From contig NZ_CP043316.1 of NCBI RefSeq assembly GCF_008189405.1, positions 558,258 to 622,257 of the forward strand: 64,000 nt of DNA, in the 5' to 3' direction. How positions within the stretch are numbered: position 1 is the first letter of the stretch; every line of letters starts with the position of its first letter. This DNA is from Candidatus Cytomitobacter primus (lineage in GTDB: Bacteria; Pseudomonadota; Alphaproteobacteria; CAJXXZ01; 1604HC). The position numbers and the translations under genes were made by a program. Positions 9,592 through 28,768 of the stretch are shown in pieces. The notes beneath the pieces were generated by a model that was given only the letters and a program-made list of their open reading frames with translations, was not told the DNA's origin and did no database searches.

Positions 9592-10451
9592 TTGAAATCA
9601 AAAATGCACTCACTAATCCAATAGCAAACATAAGAAATTCCAATATATTTGTACAGCTAGAGACACTAGTTGAGCAACACAGCGATGATCTTCCTAAAGG
9701 GGATTGGTCTATATCTAATGATAAAAAAGATTGGACTAAAATATCTACACTTTGCTTAGAAATATTAGTTAATAATAGTAAAGATATACAAGTCATAATA
9801 TGGCTTATTGAGGCAAATATTCATTTACGTAAAGATGTAAAAGAATCATTTGAGATTCTTGAATATATTATTGATAATCACTGGGATATCCAAGATAAAG
9901 ACTTCGCATATAAGGCTTTTACTAACTTTGATAAAACATTAAATATAATGCTTCCTCAGTATTTTGCTTTATATAAAAATGACAATATCTATTACACTCT
10001 TGCAAGTTTCATACAGAATAAATCCATGACTGATTTTGAGAAGCTTACCACTCAGGAATACGAGTATTCGCTGGAATTAGCAAATATTATCCAATCTCTC
10101 AAAGAAAAAGCAAGTGCAAAGATGGATAATAATATGATGGCTAAATCCATTACTATTACACAGAATTTTATTCAGAAAGTTAGGAATATCATGCAGAATC
10201 AACATATACAAAATGATTCTATAAAACAAAATATAGAAACAGAATCTAACAATATAAACACGCATAATATTACATCACGCGAACAAGCATACCAAATGAT
10301 TCAGGAAATAATGCTATATTTGAAAACTCATGATCCACATAGTGCAACTCCATATTTATTGCAAAAAGCATATGAGTGGGAGAAAAAATCATTTGTAGAT
10401 ATCATGAATGACTTTAATGACCCTGTTATCATTCAAAAAATATTTCAATAG
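9579..10451 (+). CDS. tssA: TssA-like protein (ImpA N-terminal domain)
   Basis: 290 aa. ImpA_N-like block SKDIQVIIWLIEANIHLRKDVKESFEILEYIIDNHWDIQ. Last gene of the overlapping tssL-tssM operon. Shorter than canonical TssA. Confidence 0.6.
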   Translation: MHQLIEIKNALTNPIANIRNSNIFVQLETLVEQHSDDLPKGDWSISNDKKDWTKISTLCLEILVNNSKDIQVIIWLIEANIHLRKDVKESFEILEYIIDNHWDIQDKDFAYKAFTNFDKTLNIMLPQYFALYKNDNIYYTLASFIQNKSMTDFEKLTTQEYEYSLELANIIQSLKEKASAKMDNNMMAKSITITQNFIQKVRNIMQNQHIQNDSIKQNIETESNNINTHNITSREQAYQMIQEIMLYLKTHDPHSATPYLLQKAYEWEKKSFVDIMNDFNDPVIIQKIFQ

Positions 10452-10570
10452 ACATATATCAGAATTATAAGATGTAACCACACACTTACATTAAGTATAA
10501 AGTAATCATATAATCATAATCTGTAAAGCCTTAGAATGCTTATTTCAGGTAGGTTTTCCTGCAAAATCTC

Positions 10571-10599
10571 TTGTTATTTAGGTGTAAATGTAACATAAT
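10571..10599 (+). promoter_or_regulatory. sigma70-like promoter TTGTTA-N17-CATAAT of family copy 1, followed by RBS AAGGGAG at 10612-10618
   Basis: The same hexamers with the same 17-nt spacing occur upstream of all three family copies. The surrounding ~80 bp is identical between copy 1 and copy 2. Confidence 0.5.
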
Positions 10600-10622
10600 A
10601 AGTCAATTTATAAGGGAGATAT

Positions 10623-12233: not shown

Positions 12234-12290
12234 TATGTCTGTATTAATCCATAAACTTAACAAACCTATATAAGATTAAGGAATTAATAT
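11761..12290 (+). repeat. conserved 3' block of the paralogue family, copy 1 (~530 bp including ~55 bp past the stop)
   Basis: Near-identical to the reverse complement of 23690-24241 (one visible silent mismatch) and highly similar to ~30040-30510. Confidence 0.8.
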
Positions 12291-12983
12291 ATTTGATTTC
12301 CTACTTAAAGCTCATTTATGGAAGTTAAATATAGTAGTTTTCAGATTATTTATTTTCAGAGCATATGCAAGTATTATCATGAAATTATATAAAACAAGAA
12401 AATATTATTATGCATTCCCTAAGCTGTTAAGATGAAGTTGCTTTATAATGGAGTGAAAATCATAGCTCTCGTGAAATAAATACTTATCTTATGGAATGAG
12501 TTAGTTACATTAGGCAAAACTCAGTCTATAATCTTTTAATGTACCGAGTCCTTTCTCAGCAAATCACTAAAAAATATAAGTTTACTGTAGAAATATTGTG
12601 CACGGCTGATACTGCCACATCATTCTAATATGGTGAATTATATATATTAGAAAAGATAAAGAAAATTCTAAGTTAAATTAAAAAAACATTCAAAATCATC
12701 TGAATATTATTTGCTATAATTATAAAATCAATAAGCGAAAATCATGCATAAGCAAACTTCTAATAAAAACATTAATTGAAAGGGGAATTATAAAAGTTTT
12801 GAAGCATTATGCTTTGAGTTATAAATATATGGTTTGTATGATTTAACAAATATGCAAATGAAGAAAATCAAAACATATCATAGCATGGAAGAAATCAGCC
12901 ATAGGATAACAAACAAAATCACATAATAACTTACAAATGCAAAAATCTAATCTACTAGCTATTTAGATAAATTGGATTTTAGA

Positions 12984-13694
12984 TTATTTTGTTGTTTCAT
13001 TATCAGATTGCTTTGACTCTGATTTATCTGATTTTGGTTTATCTTCAGATTGAGCATCGTTTTGTTCAATGCTTTTTCTTGAAACAATTATGTTCCATTT
13101 TCTTTCCATTCTAATAATGAAGAAAGGAAGTTTTTTATTTCTCATGGTTTGCAATATATTGGAAGACTTTCCACCTATTGATCTAAATTCAATTTGACTT
13201 GAAGGAAGAAATGCTTTCACACCCCACGGAAGTAAAGCAACTATAAACCCACCACGTACTTTTTCTATAATAGTTCCTTCAACCAATTTTTTGCTTTGAA
13301 AAATATCTTCTAATTCTTTCCAAGATCTAATATGGTTAACTTTAGAAAAACTAACTACTAAAGATCCATTAGAATCTTCGTGTTTTTCGATCCAAACTGA
13401 AATCAAATCTCCAAGATTAGGAACCTCTCCAAATCCATTAATTTTGAATTCGTTTATATCTATTTTACCTTCGGCTTTAATGCCAATATTAACCCATACA
13501 TAATCTTTAGTAATGCTACTTACTGTAGCTTGAACTATGCTTTTTTCTCTGGGCATAGAAGATAACTTAGTCAGTTCTGACATTGCACTTACGTGTTCTG
13601 ATTTAACCTCTACTATTTGATCGTATTTTGTTTGCTTTGGTTTTAAACTATGCATGTCAACATTATATTCCAACACTTTGTTATAATCAAGCAT
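12984..13694 (-). CDS. S1 RNA-binding domain protein (RpsA-like, short)
   Basis: 236 aa. Two S1-like OB segments (ATVSSITKDYVWVNIGIKAEGKIDINEF and VEGTIIEKVRGGFIVALLPWGVKAFLPSSQIEF). Lys/Ser/Asp-rich tail. Confidence 0.5.
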   Translation of the reverse strand: MLDYNKVLEYNVDMHSLKPKQTKYDQIVEVKSEHVSAMSELTKLSSMPREKSIVQATVSSITKDYVWVNIGIKAEGKIDINEFKINGFGEVPNLGDLISVWIEKHEDSNGSLVVSFSKVNHIRSWKELEDIFQSKKLVEGTIIEKVRGGFIVALLPWGVKAFLPSSQIEFRSIGGKSSNILQTMRNKKLPFFIIRMERKWNIIVSRKSIEQNDAQSEDKPKSDKSESKQSDNETTK

Positions 13695-13753
13695 ATTAGT
13701 AGATATTGCTAAAAATGCACATATAATATATAGATTAGAGGTAAAGGAGTTTT

Positions 13754-15271
13754 ATGAATCAAAATATAAAAGCTAATATGTTGAGCAATTTGCTTGGCAA
13801 AATAGTTAGCTTGTTCTTTCCTATTAAGAAAACAGAAATTAAGAAATACCTTCCTACAGCTATGATGATGTTTATCATTTTATTTAACTATAACGTTGTA
13901 AGAACTTTGAAAGATGCTTTGATCATTGCAGACAGAATATCTGGAGCGGAGGCTGTGAACTTTTTGAAAACATTTGTTGTATTGCCTGCTTCTATTATTT
14001 TTGTGCTTTTGTATAGCAAAATAAGCAATATGTTTAGTAAAACCAATGTGTTTTATGTATGTATCGCGCCATTTATTGTATTTAATATTGTATTTACTTA
14101 TATTTTATACCCTAATGTGGGTTCATTACACCCATCTGCTGAGAGTATTCAAGCTTTGAAGCTTGCTTATCCTAAGCTAAGATCAGTATTTCCTGCGTAT
14201 GGATTATGGACTTATTCTTTGTACTACACATTCTCAGAATTATGGGGAACAGTTGGTATGACATTATTGTTTTGGCAGTTTGCAAACAGAATTGTGAAGA
14301 GTGAAGAATCCAAGAGATTTTACCCATCATTTGGTTTGGTTGGTAATATCGGATTCACAATCGCATCATTTATGGTTATGAATGTTGTTTCTTCACCATC
14401 ATCATTTGCGCAGAATTTTACGTATATTATGAATGTTGTAATCATTTTAAGTCTTGTATTAGTCGCAATATATTGGGGTATCAACAAATATGTACTTACA
14501 GATGAAGATATTGATTGCAATATAAATAAACCTAAAAAGAAGAAAGTAAAGCCTTCATTAGTTGAAAGTTTTAAAATTATATTTTCATCTAAATACTTGG
14601 GATGTATCATGCTTTTGATTTTTTCTTATAACTCTATGATTAATTTAGTAGAAGTTACTTGGAAGAGCCAGGTAAAAGCTTATACATTTTCAAATGATGC
14701 AGAAGCTGCAAGATCAGGTTATACAGCATTAATTGCTAAAACAAATGCATATACCGGATCAGTTTCTATATTATTATTTGCAACAGCAAACTTTTTGTTG
14801 AGTAGATTTAAGTGGGCTGTATCTGCTTCTATTACTCCAATAATCATGGTTTCTACATCCATATTGTTTTTCTTGTTCACAGTATTTCCTAAATTTGCTG
14901 GACCATTAACAAGTATGTTGTCAGTAACACCATTGTTCTTGGCAGTTATTATGGGTGCAATCCAAAATGTTGCAAGTAAAAGTACTAAGTACTCTTTATT
15001 TGACCCTACAAAAGAAATGACATATATTCCTTTGGATTCTGAATTGAAAAGTAAAGGTAAGGCTGCAGTAGACATTGCTGGAAGCAGGATCTCTAAATCA
15101 TTTGGTGGATTAGTACAGTTATTCTTACTATTCGTTACTGGAGGAAGTCAGTTAGATATTGCTCCTTATCTAATGATCTTTATTGTTACAATTGGAGTGA
15201 TTTGGTTTGTAGCTATTAAGCTATTATCAAAACAATATGATGAAGCTTTAAAATCCGATAAGTGTGAATAG
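13754..15271 (+). CDS. tlc: ATP/ADP translocase (nucleotide transporter Tlc/NTT family)
   Basis: 505 aa polytopic membrane protein. N-terminal KKYLPTAMMMFIILFNYNVVRTLKDALII matches the Rickettsia/Chlamydia Tlc signature. Confidence 0.8.
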   Translation: MNQNIKANMLSNLLGKIVSLFFPIKKTEIKKYLPTAMMMFIILFNYNVVRTLKDALIIADRISGAEAVNFLKTFVVLPASIIFVLLYSKISNMFSKTNVFYVCIAPFIVFNIVFTYILYPNVGSLHPSAESIQALKLAYPKLRSVFPAYGLWTYSLYYTFSELWGTVGMTLLFWQFANRIVKSEESKRFYPSFGLVGNIGFTIASFMVMNVVSSPSSFAQNFTYIMNVVIILSLVLVAIYWGINKYVLTDEDIDCNINKPKKKKVKPSLVESFKIIFSSKYLGCIMLLIFSYNSMINLVEVTWKSQVKAYTFSNDAEAARSGYTALIAKTNAYTGSVSILLFATANFLLSRFKWAVSASITPIIMVSTSILFFLFTVFPKFAGPLTSMLSVTPLFLAVIMGAIQNVASKSTKYSLFDPTKEMTYIPLDSELKSKGKAAVDIAGSRISKSFGGLVQLFLLFVTGGSQLDIAPYLMIFIVTIGVIWFVAIKLLSKQYDEALKSDKCE

Positions 15272-17168: not shown

Positions 17169-17879
17169 TTAATTTAAAGATGTGATTTCGCTTAAGTTGT
17201 TGATAAAAGCTTGCATTGTAAATAATCCTGGGTTTTGATTTACAAGCCATTCACATACTTTCAAAGCATCATTTGCATAAATTTTGCGATTAAATACTTG
17301 ATGCTCAAATCGAATCATTTCTTGATTGTTTAAACCAAGGAATTGATGCATAGACATATTATCTCCTGCTCTTAAAGACCATATTTGATCAGCTTGTATT
17401 TTATCATGAAGCTGCTTAGTAGTCCCAGATGGATTGTCTGCTTTGTTTTTATGGTGTACTTCTCCAATTGAAACTGCAAGATTTCTTATTTTATTAATTT
17501 TCTCAATAGAAGATTGAATAATACTCCATGAAATTGATGTGTTTGGAGCCCATAGAATTGGAATAATATTTTGATATGCTTTGTAATCAGATGCAGTATG
17601 ACTGCCTGTAGTTCCAATAAGGATTGGTATATTGTATTGAACAGCTGATTTAATATTATTTAATGTGGATTGATGATTGGAGAAATCCAGAATCACATCA
17701 GCTCCTTTTTCAATATGATTTGATATCTTTGTATTATTTTGCGTTAGTGCAACCCCATGATACTGAGTATTTTCCCTAATAACCGCAGAGTGTATTATTA
17801 TGTTTTGCATTTGAGCAATTTGGATAATAGCTTGACCCATTCTACCATTTGCACCTACTATACATATTTTCATAATCAT
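17169..17879 (-). CDS. dapB: 4-hydroxy-tetrahydrodipicolinate reductase
   Basis: 236 aa. N-terminal MKICIVGANGRMGQAII NAD(P)-binding motif. Length and layout fit DapB. Confidence 0.65.
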   Translation of the reverse strand: MIMKICIVGANGRMGQAIIQIAQMQNIIIHSAVIRENTQYHGVALTQNNTKISNHIEKGADVILDFSNHQSTLNNIKSAVQYNIPILIGTTGSHTASDYKAYQNIIPILWAPNTSISWSIIQSSIEKINKIRNLAVSIGEVHHKNKADNPSGTTKQLHDKIQADQIWSLRAGDNMSMHQFLGLNNQEMIRFEHQVFNRKIYANDALKVCEWLVNQNPGLFTMQAFINNLSEITSLN

Positions 17880-17901
17880 ATTTTAACATCGATCAGATTA
17901 T

Positions 17902-18708
17902 ATGCATATGAATTTACATTCAATGTTTTATTATTCAGCTGATTCTGTTAAGTTTGATCTAATGATTACAGAATATATATTACATGGCATATTTGAAGCT
18001 TTTCCGGTTAGTTCTTCGATGCACTCAATGTTATTTAATTATGCAATGCAAAATAGCTATGTTATGCAAAATATTGGCATAATTGGGATATTACATGGCA
18101 TCACAGCAATTGTGACAATTGTATATTTTCATAAAAGTATAATTAAGTTATTAATAGATTTTATAAAACCAGGTCATTACAATTTTCTTTCTTGGAAACT
18201 ATGTTTGATTCTACTACCTAAATTATTATTTGGATTTATTTACAGAAATGCGAATTTCCCTTTTTCTTTTTATACAATAATTGCATTTGGACTGCTACTT
18301 GCCTTTTATGATATTTATTCCCATCAAAATAAAAAAGCTCATGAAATATCTTATATGCAGTCTATTTTTATTAGTTTTCTAAGTTTATTTGCATTCTTAC
18401 CGGGAGCAAGTAGTTTAGGAACTTACTATACAGCTTTTAGAGCATGCAACATTAATAGGAAGGAATCTCTTGATTATGCATTTATTTTGAATGTGATCCC
18501 ATCTATAGGTGCATTTGTGTTAAGATTTACTTATGTTGAAGTAAATTTAGTACGAATTTTTACTTGCATGTTTGTATACTTATTTGCACTAATTCTTTGT
18601 AGAAAATTAATAAATTATTTATATTTGCTAGGTATTTATAGAGTGATTATAGGAATATGGGTATGTCAAAACATAAATATACAAAAATACTTTTACTGTG
18701 CTTTTTAA
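17902..18708 (+). CDS. uppP: undecaprenyl-diphosphatase (BacA/UppP family)
   Basis: 268 aa polytopic. EAFPVSSSMHS block resembles the UppP TEFLPVSSTGH motif and PGASSLGT resembles PGxSRSG. Somewhat divergent. Confidence 0.5.
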   Translation: MHMNLHSMFYYSADSVKFDLMITEYILHGIFEAFPVSSSMHSMLFNYAMQNSYVMQNIGIIGILHGITAIVTIVYFHKSIIKLLIDFIKPGHYNFLSWKLCLILLPKLLFGFIYRNANFPFSFYTIIAFGLLLAFYDIYSHQNKKAHEISYMQSIFISFLSLFAFLPGASSLGTYYTAFRACNINRKESLDYAFILNVIPSIGAFVLRFTYVEVNLVRIFTCMFVYLFALILCRKLINYLYLLGIYRVIIGIWVCQNINIQKYFYCAF

Positions 18709-20369
18709 TTGTTGGATGTGATAAGAAATCTGATAAGAAAGAAACAATTAATTCAAAGATAGCTTCTAGTATACAAAAAGAAGATTGGTATGCAGCCTCG
18801 AAGCTGCTTAATTTACATTTAAACATGAAAAGCTCTGCTTCAATGCATCTAGCAAATGGTTTTATTTACGATAAACTTGCAAAGCAAGATCCATCCTATG
18901 CAGGATTATCAGTTATTGCATATAAAAGAGCATTGAATTTAGATCCAAATAATTGGTCTGCTTCATTAGCAATCGGTAAATATTATATGAGAGAACATGA
19001 TTACTTAAAGGCGATCAGCGCATTTGCAAAGACATTGACTTCTAATGAAAATAATTTCGAAGCATTATATGGAATGGCAAATGCTGCATATGCAACCAGA
19101 AACATTACATTAGCAAAAAATTGCATAGATAAAGCTATTGATTTACGTGGTGATAATAAATTAGTGAATAGGTTGGCTGCATTGATTTATGCTGCACAAA
19201 ATAACTCTCGAGCAGATAAATATGCAAATAAATATGCATTTATGGAAGATGACTTGTATGAAATTAAATATTTAAGAGACAGGATTCAAGACTGGAAGAA
19301 AACTCATAAAAAAATGAGATACAATCCTAATTTCATGAAATCTTTTGATAGCCCTGATACAAATCAGAAGGATGAAAATATTACAATTGAGTGTGTAATT
19401 CTAAGCTTTAATGAGTCAGGTGCATTTTCTCGTGGAAATAATTTCTTAGAAACTTTACAAGAATTTAAAAGAGATGAATTTACTAAAGGGTTAAGTATCA
19501 GAATGGGAAATAACTCACAAGTTGAAACTGGGTTAGCTTCTAGTCCTGTATATAGTAATAATCAAGATAAGAAATATATATTTGATAATGGGAAATGGAT
19601 TTTAAGTCCAGATCTGAATGATCATAGTAAATTAATTAAGAAAGGTTTTTCAATTGGATTTGATAGCATTAGATATAATTTAAATATTCTGAACTCTAGC
19701 AGCTCTATAATTGATATAATTTCTAGGCCAATTATGCAGGTTTCATCAAAAAATGGTAAAGGTGCATTTGATTCTAATGATAAAAGTTTTGTAAATACTG
19801 GTGGAGATGTAGGTTCTGCATTATCAAATATTCCATCTGGAGTAAAGCTAGAAGTTGAAGCAAATCAGGTCGATAAGGACCATATTATGTTAGGTGTAAT
19901 GTTGGAAATAAGCAAAACAACCTTCAAAAACAACATTGGATCTCTGAATGATAATGCTAATGTGATTAGTGCTCAATTACAAACACAAATCAAAGCTAAA
20001 TTAAATGAAACAATGGTTATTGGTGGTGTATATAGTAATGTGAATGAATCTTCTAAATCAGGAGTTCCTGGCGCACAAAATATGCCATTATTAGATTTAG
20101 TGCTTGCAAATAAAAGTACTCATACTTCTAAAAAGTCTGTAATGATGCTATTAACTGCAAAAAACACACAAGAATCTAAAGTGATGGAAGTTGATATTGA
20201 TCGCATGGAAAACGTTGTTCTATTAAAACAAAGTGAGCCATCATTCTTTAAGCACAAATATAATAGAGAAAAAACTATAAAACAACAAGTACATGCATAT
20301 AGAAGAGAGGATATAAAGTCGCTTAATATATCTAATAATACAATACAATCATTTGCTGAAAGAATATAA
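18657..20369 (+). CDS. TPR-repeat lipoprotein with C-terminal secretin-like domain
   Basis: 570 aa. Lipobox LIVGC. TPR-like repeats from about aa 40-200. The C-terminus (ETMVIGGVYSNVNESSKSGVPGAQNMPLLDLVLANKSTHTSKKSVMMLLTAKNT) matches the secretin C-terminal signature (GGL...VP.LgdIP.lG.LF...eLlifitP). Confidence 0.5.
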   Translation: MGMSKHKYTKILLLCFLIVGCDKKSDKKETINSKIASSIQKEDWYAASKLLNLHLNMKSSASMHLANGFIYDKLAKQDPSYAGLSVIAYKRALNLDPNNWSASLAIGKYYMREHDYLKAISAFAKTLTSNENNFEALYGMANAAYATRNITLAKNCIDKAIDLRGDNKLVNRLAALIYAAQNNSRADKYANKYAFMEDDLYEIKYLRDRIQDWKKTHKKMRYNPNFMKSFDSPDTNQKDENITIECVILSFNESGAFSRGNNFLETLQEFKRDEFTKGLSIRMGNNSQVETGLASSPVYSNNQDKKYIFDNGKWILSPDLNDHSKLIKKGFSIGFDSIRYNLNILNSSSSIIDIISRPIMQVSSKNGKGAFDSNDKSFVNTGGDVGSALSNIPSGVKLEVEANQVDKDHIMLGVMLEISKTTFKNNIGSLNDNANVISAQLQTQIKAKLNETMVIGGVYSNVNESSKSGVPGAQNMPLLDLVLANKSTHTSKKSVMMLLTAKNTQESKVMEVDIDRMENVVLLKQSEPSFFKHKYNREKTIKQQVHAYRREDIKSLNISNNTIQSFAERI

Positions 20370-20476
20370 TAAATATGGTTAAATTATATGATATCTGTAT
20401 AGTGAATTTAACTTAATTTTTGCTCAATAATACATTAAGGGCTTGATTAACCCAAAATTTATGGTAGATTAGTACC

Positions 20477-22150
20477 ATGAAATGTCATCGTAATATTTTA
20501 ATTGTTGTTTTTTCGAGTTTTTTAATGTATGATTCCCCTCACGCTATGGGAGAAGAATTAAATAAAGATACAAATAATATGTGTGCATTTATAGTACAAG
20601 CTTTAGAAGGCGATGCTGTACAAAATAGATCAGATCTTGTGAACATTCTTAAAGAAACATCTATGGTTATGTTAGAATTAGAAGAAATAAAAGGTAAATT
20701 AAGTGGATTATCTTCAAAATTAAGAGGATACGGGTTTGATGATCATAAATCAGGAACGGAATCAGAGAAAAAATTAATAGCAAAAGAAGTAGAAGAATCA
20801 GTTGATAATCAAGAGAAAACTACTATTTGTGATGAGAATGCACCTAATTGCGAATCACAGGAATCACAGGGATTAAGTGATAGTTCTGGTAGTAGCTCTT
20901 CAGGTAATACGAGCCCATCACATGATGAAATATCAGATTCTAAGCAACCAGAAACAGAGCTGGTAGTAGCATCTGAAACAAAAAAAGCAGATAGTCAAGA
21001 AACTACCAACTGTAATGAGAATACTACTACATTGCTAGATTCTAAGAAGGATGTTGCAAGTAGAGCTGTATTAGATGCTTCGACAGAATGTGATGACATA
21101 GAAGAACTTGATGCAAAATATAAATATACTAAACCAGAAGAACCATATGCTGCATACTATACTACAATTCAGGAAGATATAGAAATATTAAAACACGAAA
21201 TAATGACAACATATGTAGAAGCTGATAGCATAAAGCAAAAATTACAATTGAACCAAAGAGTTGTTAGTATACCTGATCTAAGTAATGCTAGCCTTACTAG
21301 CTCTGTTCATGATGTACGTTTCAATGAAATTGATATATCAAAGATGCATTATGATCCTAATCACTTTAGACTTCATACATTAGAGTTATACGATTGCACT
21401 GGCGTTTCATTGCCTCGTATAGATCTATATGACATTTTTCAAATATCTATTATTAACCATTTAGGTTCTGAGATGAATGCAAGTGATTTTTTTATGTTAC
21501 CTATAGATTTTAATCCTTCAGTAGTAAATATTATAAATAGCAATTTAAGTGGTGTGTTTATGGGATTATCAAATACTGTATACAAATTGTTAACATTAAA
21601 CATATCGCATAATGCACTTAAGAAATTTGAGAAATTCTCAGCACCAAAATTACAAGTTTTGAATGGTAATGACAATTCATTTACAAATTTACCATTATAT
21701 TTAGAAAACTTGCAATATTTATTTTTACAAAACAATCTTATTAATAATATTGATTGTGATAATAGTTTGAAATCATTGAGAGTGCTAGATTTAAGTGGCA
21801 ATAATCTTAGTACCCTGAATAGCAACATATTGAAAATTGGTTCAATTGCTCCTAATCTTGAAGAATTGCATATAAGTCATAATAAAATGGAAGGGTTTAT
21901 AGATCTAGGGGATATCCCAAAACTAAGAATACTTAAAGCTTCTGATAACATCAGATTATCAATTAGATTTAATCGTAATATAGAATATATTGATGTTACT
22001 AATACTTACATCATGGAAGTTACTAACTGTCCAGCAGTAGCTTTCATTACATTTGAATATACCCCTAGCATGGTATCAAGCACTGTAATATCACGTACTG
22101 AATCACTTTTAAAATCAGATGAGTTTAAAAAAAAACTAATTGTGAATTAA
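20477..22150 (+). CDS. leucine-rich repeat protein, N-terminal part (probable frameshifted fragment)
   Basis: 557 aa. Acidic and Ser-rich disordered middle. C-terminal LRRs (LDLSGNNLSTLNSNIL, LEELHISHNKMEGF). Ends immediately after an A9 run, and the downstream frame stays open into the next LRR ORF. Confidence 0.6.
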   Translation: MKCHRNILIVVFSSFLMYDSPHAMGEELNKDTNNMCAFIVQALEGDAVQNRSDLVNILKETSMVMLELEEIKGKLSGLSSKLRGYGFDDHKSGTESEKKLIAKEVEESVDNQEKTTICDENAPNCESQESQGLSDSSGSSSSGNTSPSHDEISDSKQPETELVVASETKKADSQETTNCNENTTTLLDSKKDVASRAVLDASTECDDIEELDAKYKYTKPEEPYAAYYTTIQEDIEILKHEIMTTYVEADSIKQKLQLNQRVVSIPDLSNASLTSSVHDVRFNEIDISKMHYDPNHFRLHTLELYDCTGVSLPRIDLYDIFQISIINHLGSEMNASDFFMLPIDFNPSVVNIINSNLSGVFMGLSNTVYKLLTLNISHNALKKFEKFSAPKLQVLNGNDNSFTNLPLYLENLQYLFLQNNLINNIDCDNSLKSLRVLDLSGNNLSTLNSNILKIGSIAPNLEELHISHNKMEGFIDLGDIPKLRILKASDNIRLSIRFNRNIEYIDVTNTYIMEVTNCPAVAFITFEYTPSMVSSTVISRTESLLKSDEFKKKLIVN

Positions 22151-22236
22151 TAGACACGCTGAGCAGTGAAGAATCTGATGAAAGTGAAGAACTTGATGAA
22201 GATATAGAAAATATACAATTTCTAAAAAATGAGCTA

Positions 22237-23241
22237 ATGGTAAATGGAAATAGTATTGGAAATCTTTATGTTGTACGTGGTTGCACAAAAGTAGTACTTA
22301 ATGATATAAAATTGACAGGAAATAAGTTAAGTATTCTGGATAAAATTATTAGTATAAATGAGTTAAGATATCTTGATTTAGTGAATTGTGCTTTGACCAA
22401 GGCTTTACCTAATATATTTACTTTACAACTATTAGAATGCCTATCTTTATCTAATAACAACTTATCAGAAATTGTAATAGCAAAAAAAACACTACCATGT
22501 TTAAGAAAGCTTGATTTATCTCGTAATAATTTATCAAAATTCAGTTGTAGGTTTCTACGACAAATAGAAGATTTGGATTTAAGTAGAAATAAAATTAGTG
22601 ACCTTAAATATATAAAAAATATGAAAAATCTAGTTTCTTTAAATATAGCTAATAATAATATAGATCAATTAGATGATATTGGCGATTTAGTTAATATAGA
22701 AATACTTAACTTTGTAAATAATCGTATTTCAAAATTACCATGCTTAGATGCTCTGCAAAAATTACGTGGATATTATGCACGTAATAATAGGTTTGCATGC
22801 ATAGAAGAAACTTTCAAACCTATTCATAATATAATTTGTAGGAAAGTTCCAATAGGCGTAATATATAATCCAGATACTATGAGATATGTTGTGAAATATG
22901 GTTATCATCATACAATGAATGATGCTCTATATTACCTTCCCTATGAGATGCATATTTGTGGTGGGGATGGAAAAGAATATGATGCAATAGAGAAAGTCTC
23001 ACATACCGATGACGATAAGATATCTAAATTCAAAAAAGAATATAGAGTTGGAATTCCCAATTATAATTCTAAACATAGAATGCAAATACATGGAAATGTA
23101 GATAAAGGGATATATGATTTCATTAGTCATTATGTAACTGTGGATTGTGTGTATTGTGAAGTCAGTAGTACTAATAGACCCCCATCTAATTATGAAGATA
23201 ATTTTCAAAACATGCAGAGATGCGCATGCTATGGCTATTAG
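22237..23241 (+). CDS. leucine-rich repeat protein, C-terminal part
   Basis: 334 aa. Tandem LRRs (LDLSRNNLSKF, LDLSRNKISDLKYIKNMKNLVSLNIANNNIDQL). Its reading frame is open upstream to at least 22141, which suggests it was originally fused to the 20477-22150 ORF. Confidence 0.6.
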   Translation: MVNGNSIGNLYVVRGCTKVVLNDIKLTGNKLSILDKIISINELRYLDLVNCALTKALPNIFTLQLLECLSLSNNNLSEIVIAKKTLPCLRKLDLSRNNLSKFSCRFLRQIEDLDLSRNKISDLKYIKNMKNLVSLNIANNNIDQLDDIGDLVNIEILNFVNNRISKLPCLDALQKLRGYYARNNRFACIEETFKPIHNIICRKVPIGVIYNPDTMRYVVKYGYHHTMNDALYYLPYEMHICGGDGKEYDAIEKVSHTDDDKISKFKKEYRVGIPNYNSKHRMQIHGNVDKGIYDFISHYVTVDCVYCEVSSTNRPPSNYEDNFQNMQRCACYGY

Positions 23242-23689
23242 ATTTGTTTATCATTAGTAATTATGCATCTTGATATTTATTCGTAATGTTTTTTATTATG
23301 CCTTATAATACCATTTTCAATTAATAAATTAAACTTAAGTTACTTTGAATCGCAATCATTTATACCAGAAGATTAGATTAACTATATAAAAATATTAGAT
23401 CTTTGAAGCAGTTGGTTGAAAGGTTTATACATATAATAAGATCATAGTTAGTTAGGATAGCAATGAGAGAAGGGAATTATTTCTACTGCTAATAGTTATG
23501 ACCATTTGATGTTATGACAATATATATCATCATAAGGTAAATGGATGGGATGAATAATTTAGAATATCTATACATTATGCTGCTTCGATTGCCTAAAAAT
23601 GTATTTTCAATAATCTCAATTAATAAATCATAGTATTATATACTATTATAAACTAATCCTATATATCAATAACGTAATAACATTTTTCT

Positions 23690-24241
23690 TAATATTATAT
23701 AGGTTTGTTAAGTTTATGGATTAATACAGACACATTATTGCAGGGATTTGATTTTTTCGTTTGAGATTGCATTTAGTTTCTCAATGTCTGAAGATTCTAG
23801 TTTTAACATGCCCTCTAATGCGTCCTTTGCACTGTTCATGAAGTCTCGCCCTCTAGCATTCTCCTTGTATTCTGCCCATCTTAAGAACAAGAAGTTTCCA
23901 AAGATCTCTCCCATCATGTCCTTATCACCTTCGTATCCATTCAGCAATTCCTCTGCTCTGTCAAACAAGTGTACGATATAATCCTCATGATCACGTTCCT
24001 TCGCAAGCTTAGCAGCTTCTTCTTTTCTTAATGCTGTAACAGCCTTGTCTCCATCAGATTTTGCATACCAGTCAGCATAATCCTTCTTGAAAAACTCAAC
24101 GTCACCTCTACGCTCCTCCCCGGGATAATATGCTTGGAATTTTCGGTCTCCTCCTCCATTTCCAACTTTATAATAAAGCTTACTCCTAATAATTGCATTT
24201 AACATACTTATCAGCCTCCTTAAAATGCTTTTGCATAGCAT
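23690..24241 (-). repeat. conserved 3' block of the paralogue family, copy 2
   Basis: Reverse complement is near-identical to 11761-12290. Confidence 0.8.
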
Positions 24242-25070
24242 TCCCTACCTTGACAGTTCTAATTACATTCCAAGATGCATCCTGTCTAACAACCTCATCA
24301 AGCATGATTTTAAATTTCTCCAAGCCTTTTGCCGCCTCAACTGCCATCTTCTTTAACGCAATATGCTTTGCAATGTTTGTAAAATGTTCCTTGTCTTTTG
24401 ATAGGGATTGTAAAATAGTTGCATTAACCTTTGCTGCTTCCGCTTTATCGCTCAGCATCGATAATCCTGGATTTTCTAGGTTGTACTCATATATTGAATT
24501 GTAGTACAAACTATGAGCTTCCAACCTATCTGATTCTAAGTCCCAATCAACTTCTAATGTTCCATTTTGAGACCTGTCAGCAAGATATACAGCATTTTTG
24601 AATACATCACCATCCATGTCATAGTTACCATACGCATCTGCTAACTCCGCATAGCGAGTACTCTGCTTCATTATGTAAGAACGGGACTCATAAACGTATC
24701 GCAACATGGCATATTCAGTAGCTTGCTCATCCTTTAAATTATTTAGTTGTTCTTGCAACTCTTCTTCACTATATTTAGATAATGATTCTATGTATTCATC
24801 TTCATCATCTTGGTTAATCATTTGCATATATACGATTGATTTACACTTATTATCTGTAAGATCTTTAACAACTTCTTTAGTTCCATCAAGTACAGTTTGA
24901 TAAAACTCATCATCTCTACATTCTAAATTAGATTCCTCCAGCTCTATTGCTAAAGATTGATCAGATTTCTTCAAACAATATGCAAATTTACTTGTGCATT
25001 CCGTTAATTCTGGGCCATTTGCCATAACTGATAAGCATAATACCAGCGATAAAATTCTTAGATTCTTCAT
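23735..25070 (-). pseudogene. paralogue family copy 2, disrupted by an internal deletion of ~100 codons plus a frameshift
   Basis: Two overlapping ORFs in different frames. The 294-aa N-terminal part (signal peptide plus central block) ends at 24186 with KEADKYVKCNY. The 168-aa C-terminal block begins at 24241 with MLNAIIRSKLYYKVGNGGG. The region homologous to copy 1 aa ~292-395 is missing. Confidence 0.7.
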
Positions 25071-25093
25071 ATATCTCCCTTATAAATTGATTT

Positions 25094-25122
25094 ATTATGT
25101 TATATTTACACCTAAATAACAA
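25094..25122 (-). promoter_or_regulatory. sigma70-like promoter TTGTTA-N17-CATAAT of family copy 2 (reverse strand)
   Basis: Reverse complement of 25071-25150 is identical to 10543-10622, including the RBS AAGGGAG. Confidence 0.45.
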
Positions 25123-25217
25123 GAGATTTTGCAGGAAAACCTACCTGAAATAGGCATAATTTATATAATATTTAGGTAGCAATCTTATAGAGTGTACTAT
25201 TTCTAATAATAATTATC

Positions 25218-25763
25218 CTAATCGAATATTTCTTCTTTTATCACTTTCCCACCCATATCAAACTGCTTCCATATTCCTGATTTATTTCCATCTATGTATT
25301 GTCCAAATTCTAGAATATTAGATGATTTTGGGTGATATGTAATAGAATTTCCGTAAAGTAAATCATCTTTATAATTCTCTTCTTTGACTAAATACCCTTT
25401 TCCAAATATGAAAAATGCTCCATGTTTTTTATTATCCTTATATGCTCCTATTTGCGATAAATTACGATTCTCAAATATATACATAGCGCCATCTGGTTTT
25501 TCACCCTTATAGTTCATGATCAAACTTAATTCACCATTTTTATAAATTTCTACAACTCCATCAATTTTCCCATCTTTATAATTGACTCTTTGTGCAATGG
25601 ATCCATTTTTATAATATATGCTCTCTCCATTTCGCACGCCATCTTTCAATATATGCTTCTCAACAACTTTTCCATCAATCACAACTTCTTCAAATTGTTG
25701 CTCTGGAATTTCTTCAGTTTTACAGTTCAATTCATGCTTTTTTATAATCTGCTCAATATTCAT
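25218..25763 (-). CDS. MORN-repeat (MORN_2 / YwqK-like) protein, translationally coupled to vgrG
   Basis: 181 aa. Repeated YKNG/YKDGK/YKGEKPDG units. Its ATG shares one nucleotide with the vgrG stop (TAATG). Confidence 0.6.
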   Translation of the reverse strand: MNIEQIIKKHELNCKTEEIPEQQFEEVVIDGKVVEKHILKDGVRNGESIYYKNGSIAQRVNYKDGKIDGVVEIYKNGELSLIMNYKGEKPDGAMYIFENRNLSQIGAYKDNKKHGAFFIFGKGYLVKEENYKDDLLYGNSITYHPKSSNILEFGQYIDGNKSGIWKQFDMGGKVIKEEIFD

Positions 25764-28700
25764 TAGTTTAAATTCACCATTCCTGCTTTTATATTAATCA
25801 TTGCTGATGCTTCAATATCTGCTGTTGTATCACTTTTTAGCGCCACAATTCCTCCTTTTAAGTTTAAATTACCCCCAGCTTCCAAAGTTAGGTTTCCTCC
25901 AGATTTAATTGTAAAATTGCTAGATGCCTTATATGTAATCTGATTTGCTTCAATTTCCATATTTCCTCCTGAGATTTTGATAGTATGATTTCCACTATTA
26001 ATCGTTATATCTTTGTTCCCGGAAATTTCTTCTTTACTATTACCATTCCCTAGATTTATTTCCATATTCCCTTTAGAAATTTCGATATTCATATTTCCAT
26101 CCTGAAGTGTAATTTCTTTATTTCCCTTGTTTAAATCTAATTTATAATTACCTTCCTCAATTTTCGTAATCATATCTCCATTTTTGAGCTCAGTGAGGAA
26201 ATGCTTCGCTTCCTCTGATTCTAATTTAATCTCTTTGTTCCCTTTTTTGATGATTAATATATCATTTCCTTCTCCATCTGTAGGTTCATCTTCCCCAGAC
26301 AATTCTACCTTTCGATCTCCACGCCCAATAATCAATTCTGAAGATCCAGTTTGAATTGTAGAGCTTTTACCATCTTTAATAATTTCCTCATAATCTTTCT
26401 CAGCATGCAAAAATATTTTTTCTTCATTTGCTTTGTCCTCAAAGCTAAATTCATTGAATCCACGCTCTTCGCCTTCTTCAACATCTTTTAGCGATTCTGT
26501 TTTTAGGCCAGTTTTCGAAATAACATCTTCAGTTTCAACCAGATTATACGGTGGCATTGTAGTTCTATTATATAAGCACCCTGTAATAATTGGGTAATTT
26601 GGATTCCCATTTTCGAATGAAATTACAACTTCTTGCCCTATACGAGGAACAAAAAATCCTCCCCATTCATTTCCAGCGCCTCCCCATTGCGCAACACGAA
26701 TCCATACAGCTTGCTGCAGCATCTCTCCATTACTCAAATTCTTTCTCCCATTATCCCAATGGAAATAAACTTTCACTTGCCCTAGGTGATTTGTATAGAT
26801 TTTCTGATCCTCTCCACCAACAACAATTCCTGTCTGAATTCCTGCAATTTTCCTGTATGGCTCAGGTTTGACTTTAAATGGTTGATCAATTTTCGAAAAC
26901 ACGGCGCTATTTTCATAGTGTAAAACCATATCATCCAAATCTACAGTAGCATCATCCATATTTTTATCCACAGCCTGATATTCTAATTTATGAGAAACTC
27001 GCTTTACATAATACTGCCCATTCATCTCAATATCTGGGTGATGCGTAAGAACAAACTTGTATCCAGGGCTAACTTCCTGACGAAAAGTTTTTGTATGATA
27101 TTCTGTCTCACTTGTATCTGCATGTTGATTGCATATTCCATTATATTCTTTCACTTTTTGATCTGAGGTAAATGTTTCGCTATAATGATCATCCACATCG
27201 CTAGCAGAACTCTCTGATGAATTTGCCCCAGAGGAATTTTCAACTTCATGAATTATATTGCGCTTTTCAGGGTCAAGATCTGGGTTGAATCCTTGAAGTT
27301 GGGTGGAATTAGGGGCATATTTATGTGCAACATTCCATTGCGAGATATATTTATCGTTACGACCCTCCAATCCAGTTGTTGTATAATGCAAAGGACGAGA
27401 ATCGGTGAATGGGTCGGACATATCAAAAACTTTTGAAACAGCTCCATCTTCTACAGCCCCTTTCCCCTTAGATTGCGATTCAGCAACAATTTGCGTGTCA
27501 AAACCATCGTCGAAAATACTCATTTCTCCACTTTGTACGGAAGTATAGGCGTTCGCTCCTTTGGAGGCTAACTCTCCTGTGGGGCTATAGTTTTCAATGG
27601 CATTTTCATACCCTAAATATGTTTTATATGGCGAGGGAGATGAGGAAGCAGAAGGAGAAACACTACCTGATTCATCAGCAATTTCTGCACCATCTCCAGA
27701 ATTAAACCCAGCCAAATCATCTTCCTCTTCCTCGTCATCCGCATCATAGTTAGCATCTGCACTATCTGACACATCTGCTCCCTGAGGATTATTATAAAAC
27801 ACAATCCCTGTATGCACGTCCGTATGCTCAAAACAATAATAAACCCCAAAATCCCTACACAACCGATTCAATAACTCCCAATCCGTCTCCTCATACTGCA
27901 CTATATATTCAGGAAAATCCTCCTGTTCACTCTTAGCAAAATTTGTCTGATCATCATAATTCAAATATTTACTCCTTGGATTCTCAATCGCAGCCATACG
28001 ATATTGTGCATCCAAAATACTCATATTAATATCAATAATTACCTTATCATAATGATTATCATGCTGGTCATTCTTTGCCTCAAATTCATCTATTTGAATT
28101 TCATAATCATCTGATTGTGATTCATAATTTCCATGTATGGCAACTAATTCTGAAGTTCTATCTTTTGATTTTTCATCTTTTAAAGTTATATTATTTTTCT
28201 TTATTAATCTTTCAATAATATTTGCCATTAATTTTGACTTGTTAAATATGATATCTTGATTTTGCTCAACTGGTGCGTCATCTACAGATGGATAGAAAAT
28301 ACGATTACGTTTTGTGCCTAATTTAAATTGCATTTCAGGAATCATGCTAAACCCATAAACATAATATTGCTCTTCCTTAGTTGGGGTTTTTATTCCTAAA
28401 TATGTCCATTCATTGATTATTCCATGCCAATATTTTCTATCAATATTTGGCTTGCCAACACTTAAGCCCATGTGCATTTTTTTACTAATCATATTTGGTT
28501 TTTTCTCAAAAAATGCAACTTCTCCTTGAATAAAGAATGGTTGAGATAACCCTTCCTCTATATTAACTTTATAAACTCTCCCTAAATGACGTTTATATCT
28601 TCTATCTTCATCAGTTTTAGGTTGCCATTGATCATAACCTAAGGTCGCTAATCCAATCATTTCAAAATCAGAATTATCTTCAACCTTTTGGTTATGCTTA

Positions 28701-28768
28701 TAAGTATTATTATAATCTTCTTCTAAGGTATAATCTTTTTTTTCGAGCTCTTCAGGCATTTGAGACAA
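25763..28768 (-). CDS. vgrG: type VI secretion spike protein VgrG
   Basis: 1001 aa. gp5-like OB-fold block VAQWGGAGNEWGGFFVPRIGQEVVISFENGNPNYPIITGCLYN. C-terminal beta-helix repeats (SGNKDITINSGNHTIKISGGNMEIEANQITYK...). Acidic low-complexity insert (DADDEEEEDDLAGFNSGDGAE...). Confidence 0.85.
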   Translation of the reverse strand: MSQMPEELEKKDYTLEEDYNNTYKHNQKVEDNSDFEMIGLATLGYDQWQPKTDEDRRYKRHLGRVYKVNIEEGLSQPFFIQGEVAFFEKKPNMISKKMHMGLSVGKPNIDRKYWHGIINEWTYLGIKTPTKEEQYYVYGFSMIPEMQFKLGTKRNRIFYPSVDDAPVEQNQDIIFNKSKLMANIIERLIKKNNITLKDEKSKDRTSELVAIHGNYESQSDDYEIQIDEFEAKNDQHDNHYDKVIIDINMSILDAQYRMAAIENPRSKYLNYDDQTNFAKSEQEDFPEYIVQYEETDWELLNRLCRDFGVYYCFEHTDVHTGIVFYNNPQGADVSDSADANYDADDEEEEDDLAGFNSGDGAEIADESGSVSPSASSSPSPYKTYLGYENAIENYSPTGELASKGANAYTSVQSGEMSIFDDGFDTQIVAESQSKGKGAVEDGAVSKVFDMSDPFTDSRPLHYTTTGLEGRNDKYISQWNVAHKYAPNSTQLQGFNPDLDPEKRNIIHEVENSSGANSSESSASDVDDHYSETFTSDQKVKEYNGICNQHADTSETEYHTKTFRQEVSPGYKFVLTHHPDIEMNGQYYVKRVSHKLEYQAVDKNMDDATVDLDDMVLHYENSAVFSKIDQPFKVKPEPYRKIAGIQTGIVVGGEDQKIYTNHLGQVKVYFHWDNGRKNLSNGEMLQQAVWIRVAQWGGAGNEWGGFFVPRIGQEVVISFENGNPNYPIITGCLYNRTTMPPYNLVETEDVISKTGLKTESLKDVEEGEERGFNEFSFEDKANEEKIFLHAEKDYEEIIKDGKSSTIQTGSSELIIGRGDRKVELSGEDEPTDGEGNDILIIKKGNKEIKLESEEAKHFLTELKNGDMITKIEEGNYKLDLNKGNKEITLQDGNMNIEISKGNMEINLGNGNSKEEISGNKDITINSGNHTIKISGGNMEIEANQITYKASSNFTIKSGGNLTLEAGGNLNLKGGIVALKSDTTADIEASAMINIKAGMVNLN

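Follow-up and report, generated by a model that had tools for sequence, protein, structure and literature searches.

In the genome of Candidatus Cytomitobacter primus (hereafter C. primus), a diplonemid endosymbiont with 31% GC, two adjacent open reading frames (ORFs) encoding leucine-rich repeat (LRR) proteins lie in different frames and meet at a run of adenines. This arrangement raises the question of whether the locus holds two genes, the remains of one, or a single gene whose frame can be restored during expression. An earlier interpretation, drawn from the letters and their translations alone (the sequence-only reading), proposed one LRR gene split at the tract, which could be a phase-variable effector, a site of transcriptional slippage or a fresh pseudogene. 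We analyzed this locus within a 64-kb stretch of the genome (64,000 nucleotides; the window, to which all positions refer unless another genome is named) and compared it with the corresponding regions of related bacteria. The best reading of these analyses is that ORF1 and ORF2 would be the halves of one ancestral gene of ~900 aa, with two LRR blocks and a Sec signal.

Two LRR ORFs Meet Inside a Poly(A) Tract

The product of ORF1 starts with a signal-peptide-like N-terminus (MKCHRNILIVVFSSFLMYDSPHA; read from the sequence by eye, not predictor output), followed by a Ser/Asp/Glu-rich region, LRR block 1 (~aa 340-515) and the start of a linker (Table 1). Its public annotation is 'leucine-rich repeat domain-containing protein [Ca. 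Cytomitobacter primus]'. Both ORFs match the Pfam families LRR_4 (42 and 62.6 bits; cutoff 27) and LRR_8 (37.8 and 48.6 bits; cutoff 27) above gathering score, which bears out the description of two adjacent LRR ORFs in different frames. The C-terminal 157 aa of ORF2 form an orphan region, for which there was no Pfam match better than E 0.15 and no PDB match better than E 1.3; a library of 1.84 billion representative proteins contained no match other than the region itself. An AlphaFold2 single-sequence model of the fused protein (921 aa) had a mean pLDDT of 32.6 and was unusable.

Table 1. Positions of the features at the LRR locus of C. primus and of the linker tracts in two related genomes.
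Feature	Position	Strand	Description
TPR-secretin gene (GspD/PilQ-type)	18657..20369	+	Directly upstream of the LRR gene; lipoprotein-like N-terminus
ORF1	20477..22150	+	557 aa; LRR ORF; short product as the genome reads
Upstream closing TAA of the ORF2 frame	22126..22128	+	T before the A9 tract plus its first two A's
A9 tract	22127..22135	+	Lys551-553 (AAA AAA AAA) in the ORF1 frame
Slippery heptamer A_AAA_AAA (X_XXY_YYZ)	22129-22135	+	In ORF1 register, within the A9 tract
Leader, ORF2 frame	22129..22236	+	36 stop-free codons (KKTNCELIDTLSSEESDESEELDEDIENIQFLKNEL); no ATG, GTG or TTG
ORF1-frame stop TAA	22148..22150	+	Four codons past the A9 tract (CTA ATT GTG AAT TAA)
LRR block 2	~22204-22731		Counted from the fusion
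ORF2 as listed	22237..23241	+	334 aa; LRR block 2 and C-terminal region; no signal peptide of its own
C-terminal region of ORF2	22768-23238		157 aa; Cys/His-rich; orphan
A8 tract, L002 (OZ247489.1)	14614-14621		Inter-LRR linker; second Cytomitobacter species
A12 tract, L004	13325-13336		In frame; inter-LRR linker

The junction reads ...GAG TTT AAA AAA AAA CTA ATT GTG AAT TAA. As the sequence-only reading had stated, the ORF1 stop begins 13 nt beyond the last A of an A9 tract; that reading had placed the tract at 22126-22134, one base to the left of its actual position. The ORF2 frame, -1 relative to ORF1, had been described as open back to at least 22141 and reaches further, to 22129, so that it begins exactly inside the tract and stays open for 368 codons from there. 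Upstream of Met 22237 this frame encodes the leader peptide TNCELIDTLSSEESDESEELDEDIENIQFLK, and under the fusion reading the leader would be the acidic linker between the two LRR blocks. The gap from ORF1 to ORF2 as listed is 86 nt.

The gene is otherwise undamaged: a single added A (A10) suffices to fuse ORF1 and ORF2 into one uninterrupted ORF of 921 aa. Loss of two A's (A7) also fuses them, into 920 aa, and A8 yields a 553-aa product without fusion. The earlier expectation that a change of one base in either direction would give one protein of ~890 aa is thus right for the added A, wrong for the lost one, and somewhat low in size.

The A9 tract is identical in the PacBio HiFi assembly OX638200.1, and positions 17237-24206 of the window are 100% identical to that assembly. 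Since the structure differs outside this interval, the window belongs to an assembly separate from OX638200.1, presumably the published Illumina one; the published C. primus data comprise Illumina reads at 164x and PacBio HiFi reads. Both assemblies derive from the symbiont of the same host strain (D. japonicum YPF1604) in separate projects, and each has A9 as its consensus. On this agreement, we take it that the A9 tract is not an assembly artefact.

Related Genomes Carry the Locus Intact, Split or Reduced

When the C. primus fusion was used as the query for homologues, its own ORF1 was recovered together with generic LRR proteins of 23-29% identity, a good many of which are eukaryotic, and no other strains or fused variants; the label 'eukaryote-like' given to the protein by the sequence-only reading therefore finds weak support in these best non-self matches. 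The L002 fusion as query gave nothing beyond its own ORF1, likewise with no other strains or fused variants, and a search of genome contigs with the fused protein gave no matches, missing even the source genome. Because the LRR proteins evolve too fast, we used the conserved secretin gene upstream (Pfam Secretin, E 7.5e-16, plus TPR) as a synteny anchor instead. Secretin orthologues were found at 39-67% identity, and the secretin-LRR gene neighbourhood is common to five genomes: the LRR gene follows the secretin in L002, L004 and L005, and is inverted in C. indipagum (L006). A search of metagenome contigs with the secretin alignment gave TPR-level noise only.

At the same site downstream of the secretin, two more distant relatives carry a single ORF, of 941 aa in L004 and of 871 aa in L005 (CP060235.1). 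In each protein a linker separates two LRR blocks, and the C-terminal part contains a Y...CxxC motif that can be aligned with ORF2; this shared architecture and position upholds the proposal of one LRR gene split at the A-tract. The L004 linker contains an in-frame A12 tract, and changing it by one base in either direction reduces the product to ~497-504 aa; the HiFi-based contig that carries it has a coverage of only ~2x.

A second split state is found in L002 (OZ247489.1), where the linker tract is A8 in the one HiFi assembly on which it rests. There, ORF1 ends in ...AGT AAA AAA AAG TAA, presenting the heptamer A_AAA_AAG in the zero-frame register with the TAA immediately after it. The L002 ORF2 frame is also -1, its closing TAA again arises from the T together with the tract's two leading A's (CAG TAA AAA AAA GTA), and it is open for 299 codons from the tract, so the two ORFs can be fused only by a +1 or -2 change. 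After the tract there is no ATG for 49 codons, and the sole candidate start is a GTG at codon 26; the pair is listed in OZ247489.1 as proteins of 787 and 274 aa. The LRR2 block of C. primus aligns colinearly with ORF2 of L002, at offsets of 79 and 71 residues from the tract.

C. primus and L002 fall in different Cytomitobacter subclades in a neighbor-joining tree of the secretin, and their LRR proteins are ~23-32% identical. It follows that either the frameshift is old and ORF2 has stayed intact ever since, or ORF2 has been put out of frame twice, both times very recently. Across the three lineages the linker tract is A9, A8 and in-frame A12, tracts that match by domain-level position only, the proteins being too diverged for residue-level homology. 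A hydrophobic N-terminus is present in every single-ORF orthologue and in every ORF1.

Reduced states occur as well. In C. indipagum an ORF1-like 560-aa gene stands alone, ORF2 having been lost, and L003 has a non-LRR ORF of 592 aa followed by 1 kb of non-coding DNA at 20% GC. The 592-aa ORF ends in an A8 tract plus stop, to which we gave no weight, as it resembles neither the proteins of L002 nor those of C. primus and the spacer holds no ORF2 remnant. ORF2 would thus appear to be dispensable in some lineages, and the pattern in C. indipagum and L003 fits a decay series as well as it fits recoding.

Frame-Switch Junctions Among Poly(A) Tracts

Only two homopolymers of at least 9 bases occur within the 64 kb, one of them being the tract between ORF1 and ORF2. 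The bamA gene also has an in-frame A9 (3324-3332). Runs of A8 or longer are ~3-fold under-represented (10 matches versus 33 +/- 9 in dinucleotide shuffles). Across ~215 kb of these genomes we counted 39 such tracts, among which the orthologous sites of C. primus and L002 are the only true frame-switch junctions; ~25 other tracts lie within long open frames and are in frame. An apparent frame switch at positions 7884-7891 of L010 (N. abundans), an A8, proved to be an ordinary overlap of dapB and nth. The A12, A9 and A8 linker tracts persist despite the depletion of long homopolymers in the window and the almost total change in the protein sequence around them.

When compared with 116 long ORFs of these genomes, the 36-codon leader of C. 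primus falls in the 1.7% tail and the 26-codon stop-free leader of L002 in the 3.4% tail. Leaders that are stop-free from the tract to the first start codon argue against an old split with independent initiation. The codon-usage score of the leader equals the mean of coding windows, but 26-37% of stop-free non-coding windows score equally high, and we place no weight on this test.

A Poly(A) Frameshift That May Be Tolerated or Maintained

The explanation that we favor, with a probability of roughly 0.55, is that the poly(A) frameshift is tolerated or maintained, with a short LRR1 protein as the default product and a minority of full-length protein made through +1 A slippage and/or -1 frameshifting. 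Under this explanation, a one-base deficit in the linker poly(A) (A9 where A10 would be in frame) interrupts the gene, and the genome as written would yield a 557-aa isoform with the signal peptide, the acidic region and LRR1. In a minority of expression events the frame would be restored, either by RNA polymerase adding one A over the tract or by the ribosome slipping -1 on A_AAA_AAA, and both routes would give the same 921-aa product (...DEFKKK-TNCELID...). In this long form, the one signal peptide of the locus would also serve LRR2 and the orphan C-terminal domain. Far from being a dead end, the tract would set the ratio of isoforms, or would at minimum be a leaky frameshift that is tolerated. 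Slippage at the A9 tract, the production and usefulness of the long form, and export of the LRR protein through Sec and the secretin are what we infer. Among the options that the sequence-only reading had listed, it is slippage that the L002 gene favors, since its split lies in the corresponding linker with a -1 offset and a leader that is likewise open, and the fresh pseudogene becomes less likely.

As for the ribosomal route, the zero-frame heptamer and the -1 ORF are present, and no conserved downstream structure was found at 5-9 nt. In C. primus no convincing stimulatory RNA structure was found (z +0.47 for 22136-22200 and z -1.14 for 22127-22230), and the hairpin detected in L002 (z -2.66 over 107 nt) starts ~27 nt downstream of the tract, too far for a classical stimulator. 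The junction had no Rfam match, and we recognised no upstream Shine-Dalgarno-like stimulator by eye. As for the transcriptional route, A9 is close to the lower limit of the tract lengths for which efficient slippage has been documented, and A8 even closer (partly PMC5009743).

A more ambitious version, which we put forward only tentatively and consider somewhat doubtful, holds that the linker tract (A12, A9 and A8 in the three lineages) sets the ratio of LRR1-only to LRR1-LRR2-C-terminal protein for an effector linked to the secretin, and that evolution tunes this ratio through in-frame and out-of-frame lengths, as in tssM1 and tssM3 (see below).

Alternative Explanations

Fresh pseudogenisation would account for the split through a replication slip from A10 to A9, leaving the 557-aa protein as the only product and ORF2 dead, with the L002 split as an independent event. 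Although gene erosion in AT-rich endosymbionts is known to strike first at poly(A) tracts (PMC3017870), this account needs the same linker tract to have been struck, in the same direction, in both split lineages, and recently enough for 368 and 299 codons and both leaders to have stayed stop-free at 31% GC, while the split lineages meanwhile diverged to ~25-30% identity in the LRR protein. C. primus has only ~7 predicted pseudogenes, and the other long tracts inside long frames have remained in frame. The loss of ORF2 in C. indipagum, and apparently in L003, does indicate that selection may be relaxed in the clade, and the ORF1-like protein stands alone in C. indipagum. The occurrence of the same split in two species makes a fresh pseudogene less likely for C. 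primus; two independent fresh pseudogenes appear unlikely, and that is also how we rate this explanation as a whole.

DNA-level phase variation, in which slipped-strand mispairing would interconvert A9 (off, short) and A10 (on, long) within the symbiont population, seems improbable to us. Its 'off' length would have to be the consensus in both split species, the consensus is A9 in two assemblies from the same host strain, and the genomes retain mutS and mutL, even though such switches classically consist of a homopolymer within a gene with a putative role in host interaction, the tract length varies by species (8, 9, 12), and phase variation would also keep ORF2 and its leader intact. To our knowledge, phase variation is undescribed in obligate intracellular symbionts with genomes of ~0.6 Mb.

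Similarly hard to credit is an old, fixed split into two separate genes, with ORF2 translated from the ATG at 22237. Two genes are called in both public annotations, the ATG is indeed present, and its missing Shine-Dalgarno sequence is uninformative given that Shine-Dalgarno use is weak genome-wide; yet 36 open codons extend upstream of this ATG into the tract, the 86-nt gap is too long for translational coupling, and a scan between the ORFs found no promoter-like or terminator-like sites. ORF2 also has no signal peptide, whereas the single-ORF orthologues and the ORF1s all have a hydrophobic N-terminus. When orthologues were inspected for two genes with independent starts, none was found, L002 as the one other split orthologue offering only the GTG at codon 26 within its 49 ATG-less codons. 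Independent initiation of ORF2 is thus unlikely.

Finally, an assembly error in homopolymer length, with a true A10 and a single intact gene, is very improbable: homopolymers are the main class of indel error in long-read consensus, and a single HiFi-based assembly each underlies the tracts of L002 and L004 (L004 at ~2x), but the two C. primus assemblies, which differ in structure, have every base in common over 17237-24206, and an A9 is well within Illumina accuracy.

Relation to Known Systems

The closest parallel is found in Buchnera and Blochmannia, whose poly(A)-frameshifted genes are rescued by transcriptional slippage (Tamas et al. 2008, as summarised in PMC5009743). Of the transcripts of such genes 12-50% are corrected (PMC5009743), and different species share these frameshifts (PMC3017870). 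At A/T runs, insertion of a single A predominates among transcription errors (PMC5574713). As in those insect symbionts, the C. primus gene resides in an AT-rich, highly reduced endosymbiont genome, is one base short in a poly(A) tract on the coding strand, a defect that one added A would correct, is otherwise intact, and is frameshifted in more than one species (here C. primus and L002, judged by position). In contrast, C. primus is an alphaproteobacterium (Holosporaceae in the cited papers) whose host is a diplonemid protist, and its gene, unlike theirs, has no housekeeping or biosynthetic role but encodes a putatively secreted LRR protein that evolves fast; the tracts are also shorter (A9, A8) than most of those documented (9-12 bases). 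If our favored explanation is correct, conserved poly(A) frameshifts rescued by slippage would extend beyond insect nutritional symbionts to an alphaproteobacterial endosymbiont of marine protists, and to a putative host-interaction effector instead of a housekeeping gene. The annotated LRR pairs, in C. primus and as the 787- and 274-aa proteins of OZ247489.1, would each be one gene with two isoforms, and LRR2 and the orphan C-terminal domain would follow a signal peptide in the long isoform only. As this class of mechanism is already well known, the effect on the field would be modest; should the tract set the isoform ratio, this would be programmed slippage in the effector of a protist endosymbiont.

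Transcriptional slippage has also been reported for the type III secretion genes mxiE, mxiA and spa33 of Shigella flexneri, as cited in PMC4256274 and PMC5009743. These genes share with the C. primus locus runs of ~9 A or T and a role in secretion or host interaction, and slippage of 15-30% sets their product ratio, as those papers present it. Unlike the C. primus gene, they encode, by the same account, regulators and apparatus components of a facultative pathogen in which slippage has been proven experimentally. The -1 frameshifting of dnaX-type genes and IS elements, on A_AAA_AAG and A_AAA_AAA, resembles the present case in its zero-frame heptamers, -1 downstream ORF and close stop, but C. 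primus and L002 have no conserved stem-loop or pseudoknot at a spacing of 5-9 nt.

Regarding the product itself, LRR proteins of host-associated bacteria are presumed to bind host proteins (George et al., 10.1101/719211), and the C. primus protein is a putative secreted effector. Its LRR blocks in a host-associated bacterium recall the IpaH/SspH class (LRR plus NEL) and the YopM/internalin classes; it differs in having no NEL or recognisable catalytic domain but an orphan C-terminal 157 aa, and in having a Sec-type N-terminus and a secretin neighbor in place of type III signals. The conserved pairing with the secretin suggests the LRR protein as a testable candidate substrate of the reduced T2SS/T4P-like system of these symbionts.

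In tssM1 of Citrobacter rodentium (A11, out of frame) and tssM3 of Yersinia pseudotuberculosis (in-frame poly-A), transcriptional frameshifting yields two length variants (PMC4256274): where the tract is out of frame, slippage gives the long form, and where it is in frame, the short one. Here too the tract lies at a domain boundary with a stop soon after it, and out-of-frame and in-frame orthologues coexist, mirrored by C. primus and L002 versus L004 with its A12. TssM is a structural T6SS component, for which both isoforms and their ratio have been proven to be required, whereas the C. primus gene would encode a putative secreted substrate. The TssM gene located in the window (5764-9591) is intact.

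An A9 tract splits a single LRR gene in C. primus

Candidatus Cytomitobacter primus (Holosporaceae), endosymbiotic in the diplonemid Diplonema japonicum, carries two adjacent LRR ORFs, ORF1 and ORF2, with an A9 run close to the end of ORF1. The sequence at 22120-22150 reads GAG TTT AAA AAA AAA CTA ATT GTG AAT TAA (GC content of the window, 30.8%), placing the run one nucleotide further right than in the sequence-only reading. The frame of ORF2 is -1 relative to that of ORF1 and is stop-free back to 22129, i.e., into the run itself. Fusion is obtained solely with A10 (921 aa) or A7 (920 aa); A8 and A11 yield 553 and 554 aa. Hence, of the proposal that a change of one base in either direction would give a protein of about 890 aa, the gain of one A holds, with a longer product, and the loss of one A does not. 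This split is not mentioned in the genome papers on these symbionts that were consulted.

Coordinates of the split LRR gene and of neighboring features in the window
Feature	Position	Strand	Basis
A9 run	22127-22135	+	sequence
ORF1, 557 aa	20477-22150	+	Pfam LRR_4 and LRR_8 above thresholds
ORF2 as listed, 334 aa	22237-23241	+	Pfam LRR_4 and LRR_8 above thresholds
TAA bounding ORF2 frame upstream	22126-22128	+	T preceding the run and first two A's of the run
bacA/uppP	17902-18708		
TPR-secretin gene, longest ORF	18657-20369		
bamA-like gene	1349-3976	-	
T9 run	3324-3332		
TssM	5764-9591		
TssA-like	9579-10451		
VgrG	25763-28768		
Paralogue of about 535 aa	10623-12233	+	
Paralogue of about 535 aa (copy B)	23735-25070	-	
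Paralogue of about 535 aa	28899-30497	+	

The split is real. Both proteins have exact matches in OX638200.1, a PacBio HiFi assembly of C. primus (622,378 bp), to which the window is 100% identical across 17237-24206, A9 included. Outside this interval the structures differ, indicating that the window represents a separate assembly, and one published C. primus assembly was built from Illumina reads (164x). Given the agreement of separate assemblies and this Illumina coverage, an assembly artefact is an unlikely origin of the A9.

Compared with OX638200.1, an 11.4-kb segment that holds the LRR gene lies in the opposite orientation with respect to its flanks, and is bounded by two inverted copies of a gene of a 536-aa family (10536-12283, + strand; 23685-25157, - strand). 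OX638200.1 has intact versions of the two (535 and 536 aa), and copy B of the window is called as 168 + 294 aa, lacking about aa 294-369. The structural difference reflects either misassembly of short reads induced by the repeat or a genuine recombination polymorphism.

The LRR gene in related symbionts

As these LRR proteins evolve too fast for direct tracing, we used the upstream TPR-secretin gene, linked to the LRR gene in five genomes, as synteny anchor. In two more distant relatives, L004 and L005 (CP060235.1; secretins 50 and 49% identical), a single ORF lies directly downstream of the secretin gene (941 and 871 aa, respectively). The encoded proteins share a hydrophobic N-terminus, a pair of LRR blocks with a linker in between, and, at the C-terminus, a Y...CxxC motif alignable with ORF2. 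These single ORFs show one gene of about 900 aa to be the ancestral state, which the 921-aa fusion matches, bearing out the earlier claim of one LRR gene split at the A-tract. The inter-LRR linker of L004 contains an in-frame A12 (13325-13336; GAA ACT GAA AAA AAA AAA ATA, ETEKKKI), its length being read from a contig with about 2x coverage; a change of one base in either direction would give a truncated product of about 497-504 aa.

In the Cytomitobacter species L002 (OZ247489.1; secretin 65% identical), the gene is likewise in two pieces. Its 787-aa ORF1 ends in AGT AAA AAA AAG TAA, and its ORF2, in the -1 frame, is stop-free back to CAG TAA AAA AAA GTA, mirroring the C. primus arrangement; solely a +1 (1085 aa) or -2 (1084 aa) change fuses them. 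The ORF2 halves of both species are colinear (32% identity over 114 aa), with 79 residues (C. primus) and 71 residues (L002) between the tract and the first alignable LRR; the rest of the LRR proteins show only 23-32% identity between species. Between the L002 secretin gene and ORF1 lies a 115-aa ORF (11836-12183) with an N-terminus (MNINIKVMLCCVFFSTQ...) resembling the ORF1 signal peptide (MNTNVKIVLCSVLLSF...); this ORF might have arisen by partial tandem duplication of the LRR gene's 5' end.

C. indipagum has an ORF1-like 560-aa gene only, inverted, with nothing ORF2-like beside it. In a further Cytomitobacter species (OZ247501.1), the secretin gene is followed by a 592-aa non-LRR ORF (11688-13466) ending in GAA AAA AAA TAG (A8 plus stop) and about 1 kb of non-coding DNA (13467-14501; 20% GC). 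This region has no detectable similarity to the LRR region, of which it might be a decayed remnant. In N. abundans, mutS occupies the corresponding position. A secretin neighbor-joining tree groups C. primus with C. indipagum (68% bootstrap) and the other two Cytomitobacter species together (82%), with L004 and L005 outside both pairs, placing the two split genes in different subclades.

Expression of ORF2 through the tract

At a genomic GC content of 31%, a random codon is a stop in about 7.6% of cases, and yet 368 codons are open downstream of the tract in C. primus and 299 in L002. The simplest account is that ORF2 would still be expressed through the tract. On comparative grounds, slippage or recoding appears best supported among the phase-variable effector, transcriptional slippage site and fresh pseudogene initially proposed.

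Two of four Cytomitobacter species have lost ORF2, showing that it can be done without in some hosts and keeping a decay scenario in play. The leaders, the stop-free stretches between tract and first possible start, fit poorly with an old split in which ORF2 is initiated independently. They span 36 codons devoid of ATG, GTG or TTG in C. primus; in L002, a GTG is reached after 26 codons and the first ATG after 49. Such leaders lie in the 1.7 and 3.4% tails among 116 ORFs of at least 200 aa in these genomes. Two independent fresh pseudogenes would need coincidence, both surviving full-length lineages having been struck very recently in the same linker tract and in the same direction. C. primus has only about seven predicted pseudogenes, and only 2 of 39 tracts of A8 or longer in about 215 kb of these genomes are true frame-switch junctions, namely these two.

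Expression through the tract would require one additional A in the mRNA; a -1 ribosomal shift at the tract would give a protein identical to the +1 A product. Zero-frame X_XXY_YYZ heptamers are present at both tracts (A_AAA_AAA in C. primus; A_AAA_AAG, then a stop, in L002). Since no stimulatory RNA structure was found at the C. primus tract (z = -1.1 and +0.5) and an Rfam search at the junction gave no match, we rank transcriptional slippage first, to which -1 frameshifting of the unstimulated kind may contribute. The L002 tract has a distant hairpin only, and our scan detected no promoter-like or terminator-like site between ORF1 and ORF2. Transcriptional slippage at A/T runs in E. coli and Buchnera yields mainly single-base insertions, whose rate grows exponentially as the runs lengthen (PMC5574713). 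For genes with a poly(A) frameshift in Buchnera and Blochmannia, the reading frame is restored in 12-50% of transcripts (PMC5009743), and different species have such frameshifts in common (PMC3017870).

Wherever the tract occurs (C. primus, L002 and L004), all lengths that do not restore the frame lead to termination within about 10 codons, and thus each of the three genes can give rise to two isoforms, a short one with LRR1 and a long one. The tract is in frame in L004 and out of frame in C. primus and L002, which parallels tssM3 and tssM1 (PMC4256274).

Homopolymers in the window

Only two homopolymers of at least 9 bases occur in the 64 kb, the A9 at the split and a T9. The latter, read on the coding strand, is an A9 that lies in frame within an intact gene for a BamA/Omp85-like protein (875 aa), offering a natural internal control both for slippage and for read-level homopolymer noise. 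Despite a genome AT content of 69%, A8/T8 or longer runs are about 3-fold under-represented in the window (10 versus 33 ± 9 in dinucleotide shuffles, 100/100 of which had at least 10), suggesting selection against slippery tracts. The Buchnera and Blochmannia genomes are tract-rich, whereas this window is tract-poor.

Predicted function and genomic neighborhood

ORF1 begins with a signal-peptide-like segment, which ORF2 lacks. These symbionts have a reduced T2SS/T4P (gspD, gspF, pilB, and pilQ), and LRR proteins have been noted as likely host-interaction factors (George et al., 10.1101/719211). It is a reasonable guess that the LRR protein is exported in a Sec- and secretin-dependent manner. 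Its C-terminal 157-aa region is an orphan, with no relatives found in Pfam, PDB or a library of 1.84 billion proteins. The secretin itself combines its secretin domain with a fused TPR region and has a lipobox-like LIVGC near the N-terminus; its longest ORF overlaps bacA/uppP by 52 nt, and the public annotation starts slightly later (568 aa).

Finally, the three paralogues of about 535 aa (69-95% amino acid identity in parts; no Pfam domain) flank T6SS genes and are candidates for T6SS cargo or accessory functions, serving also as recombination substrates.
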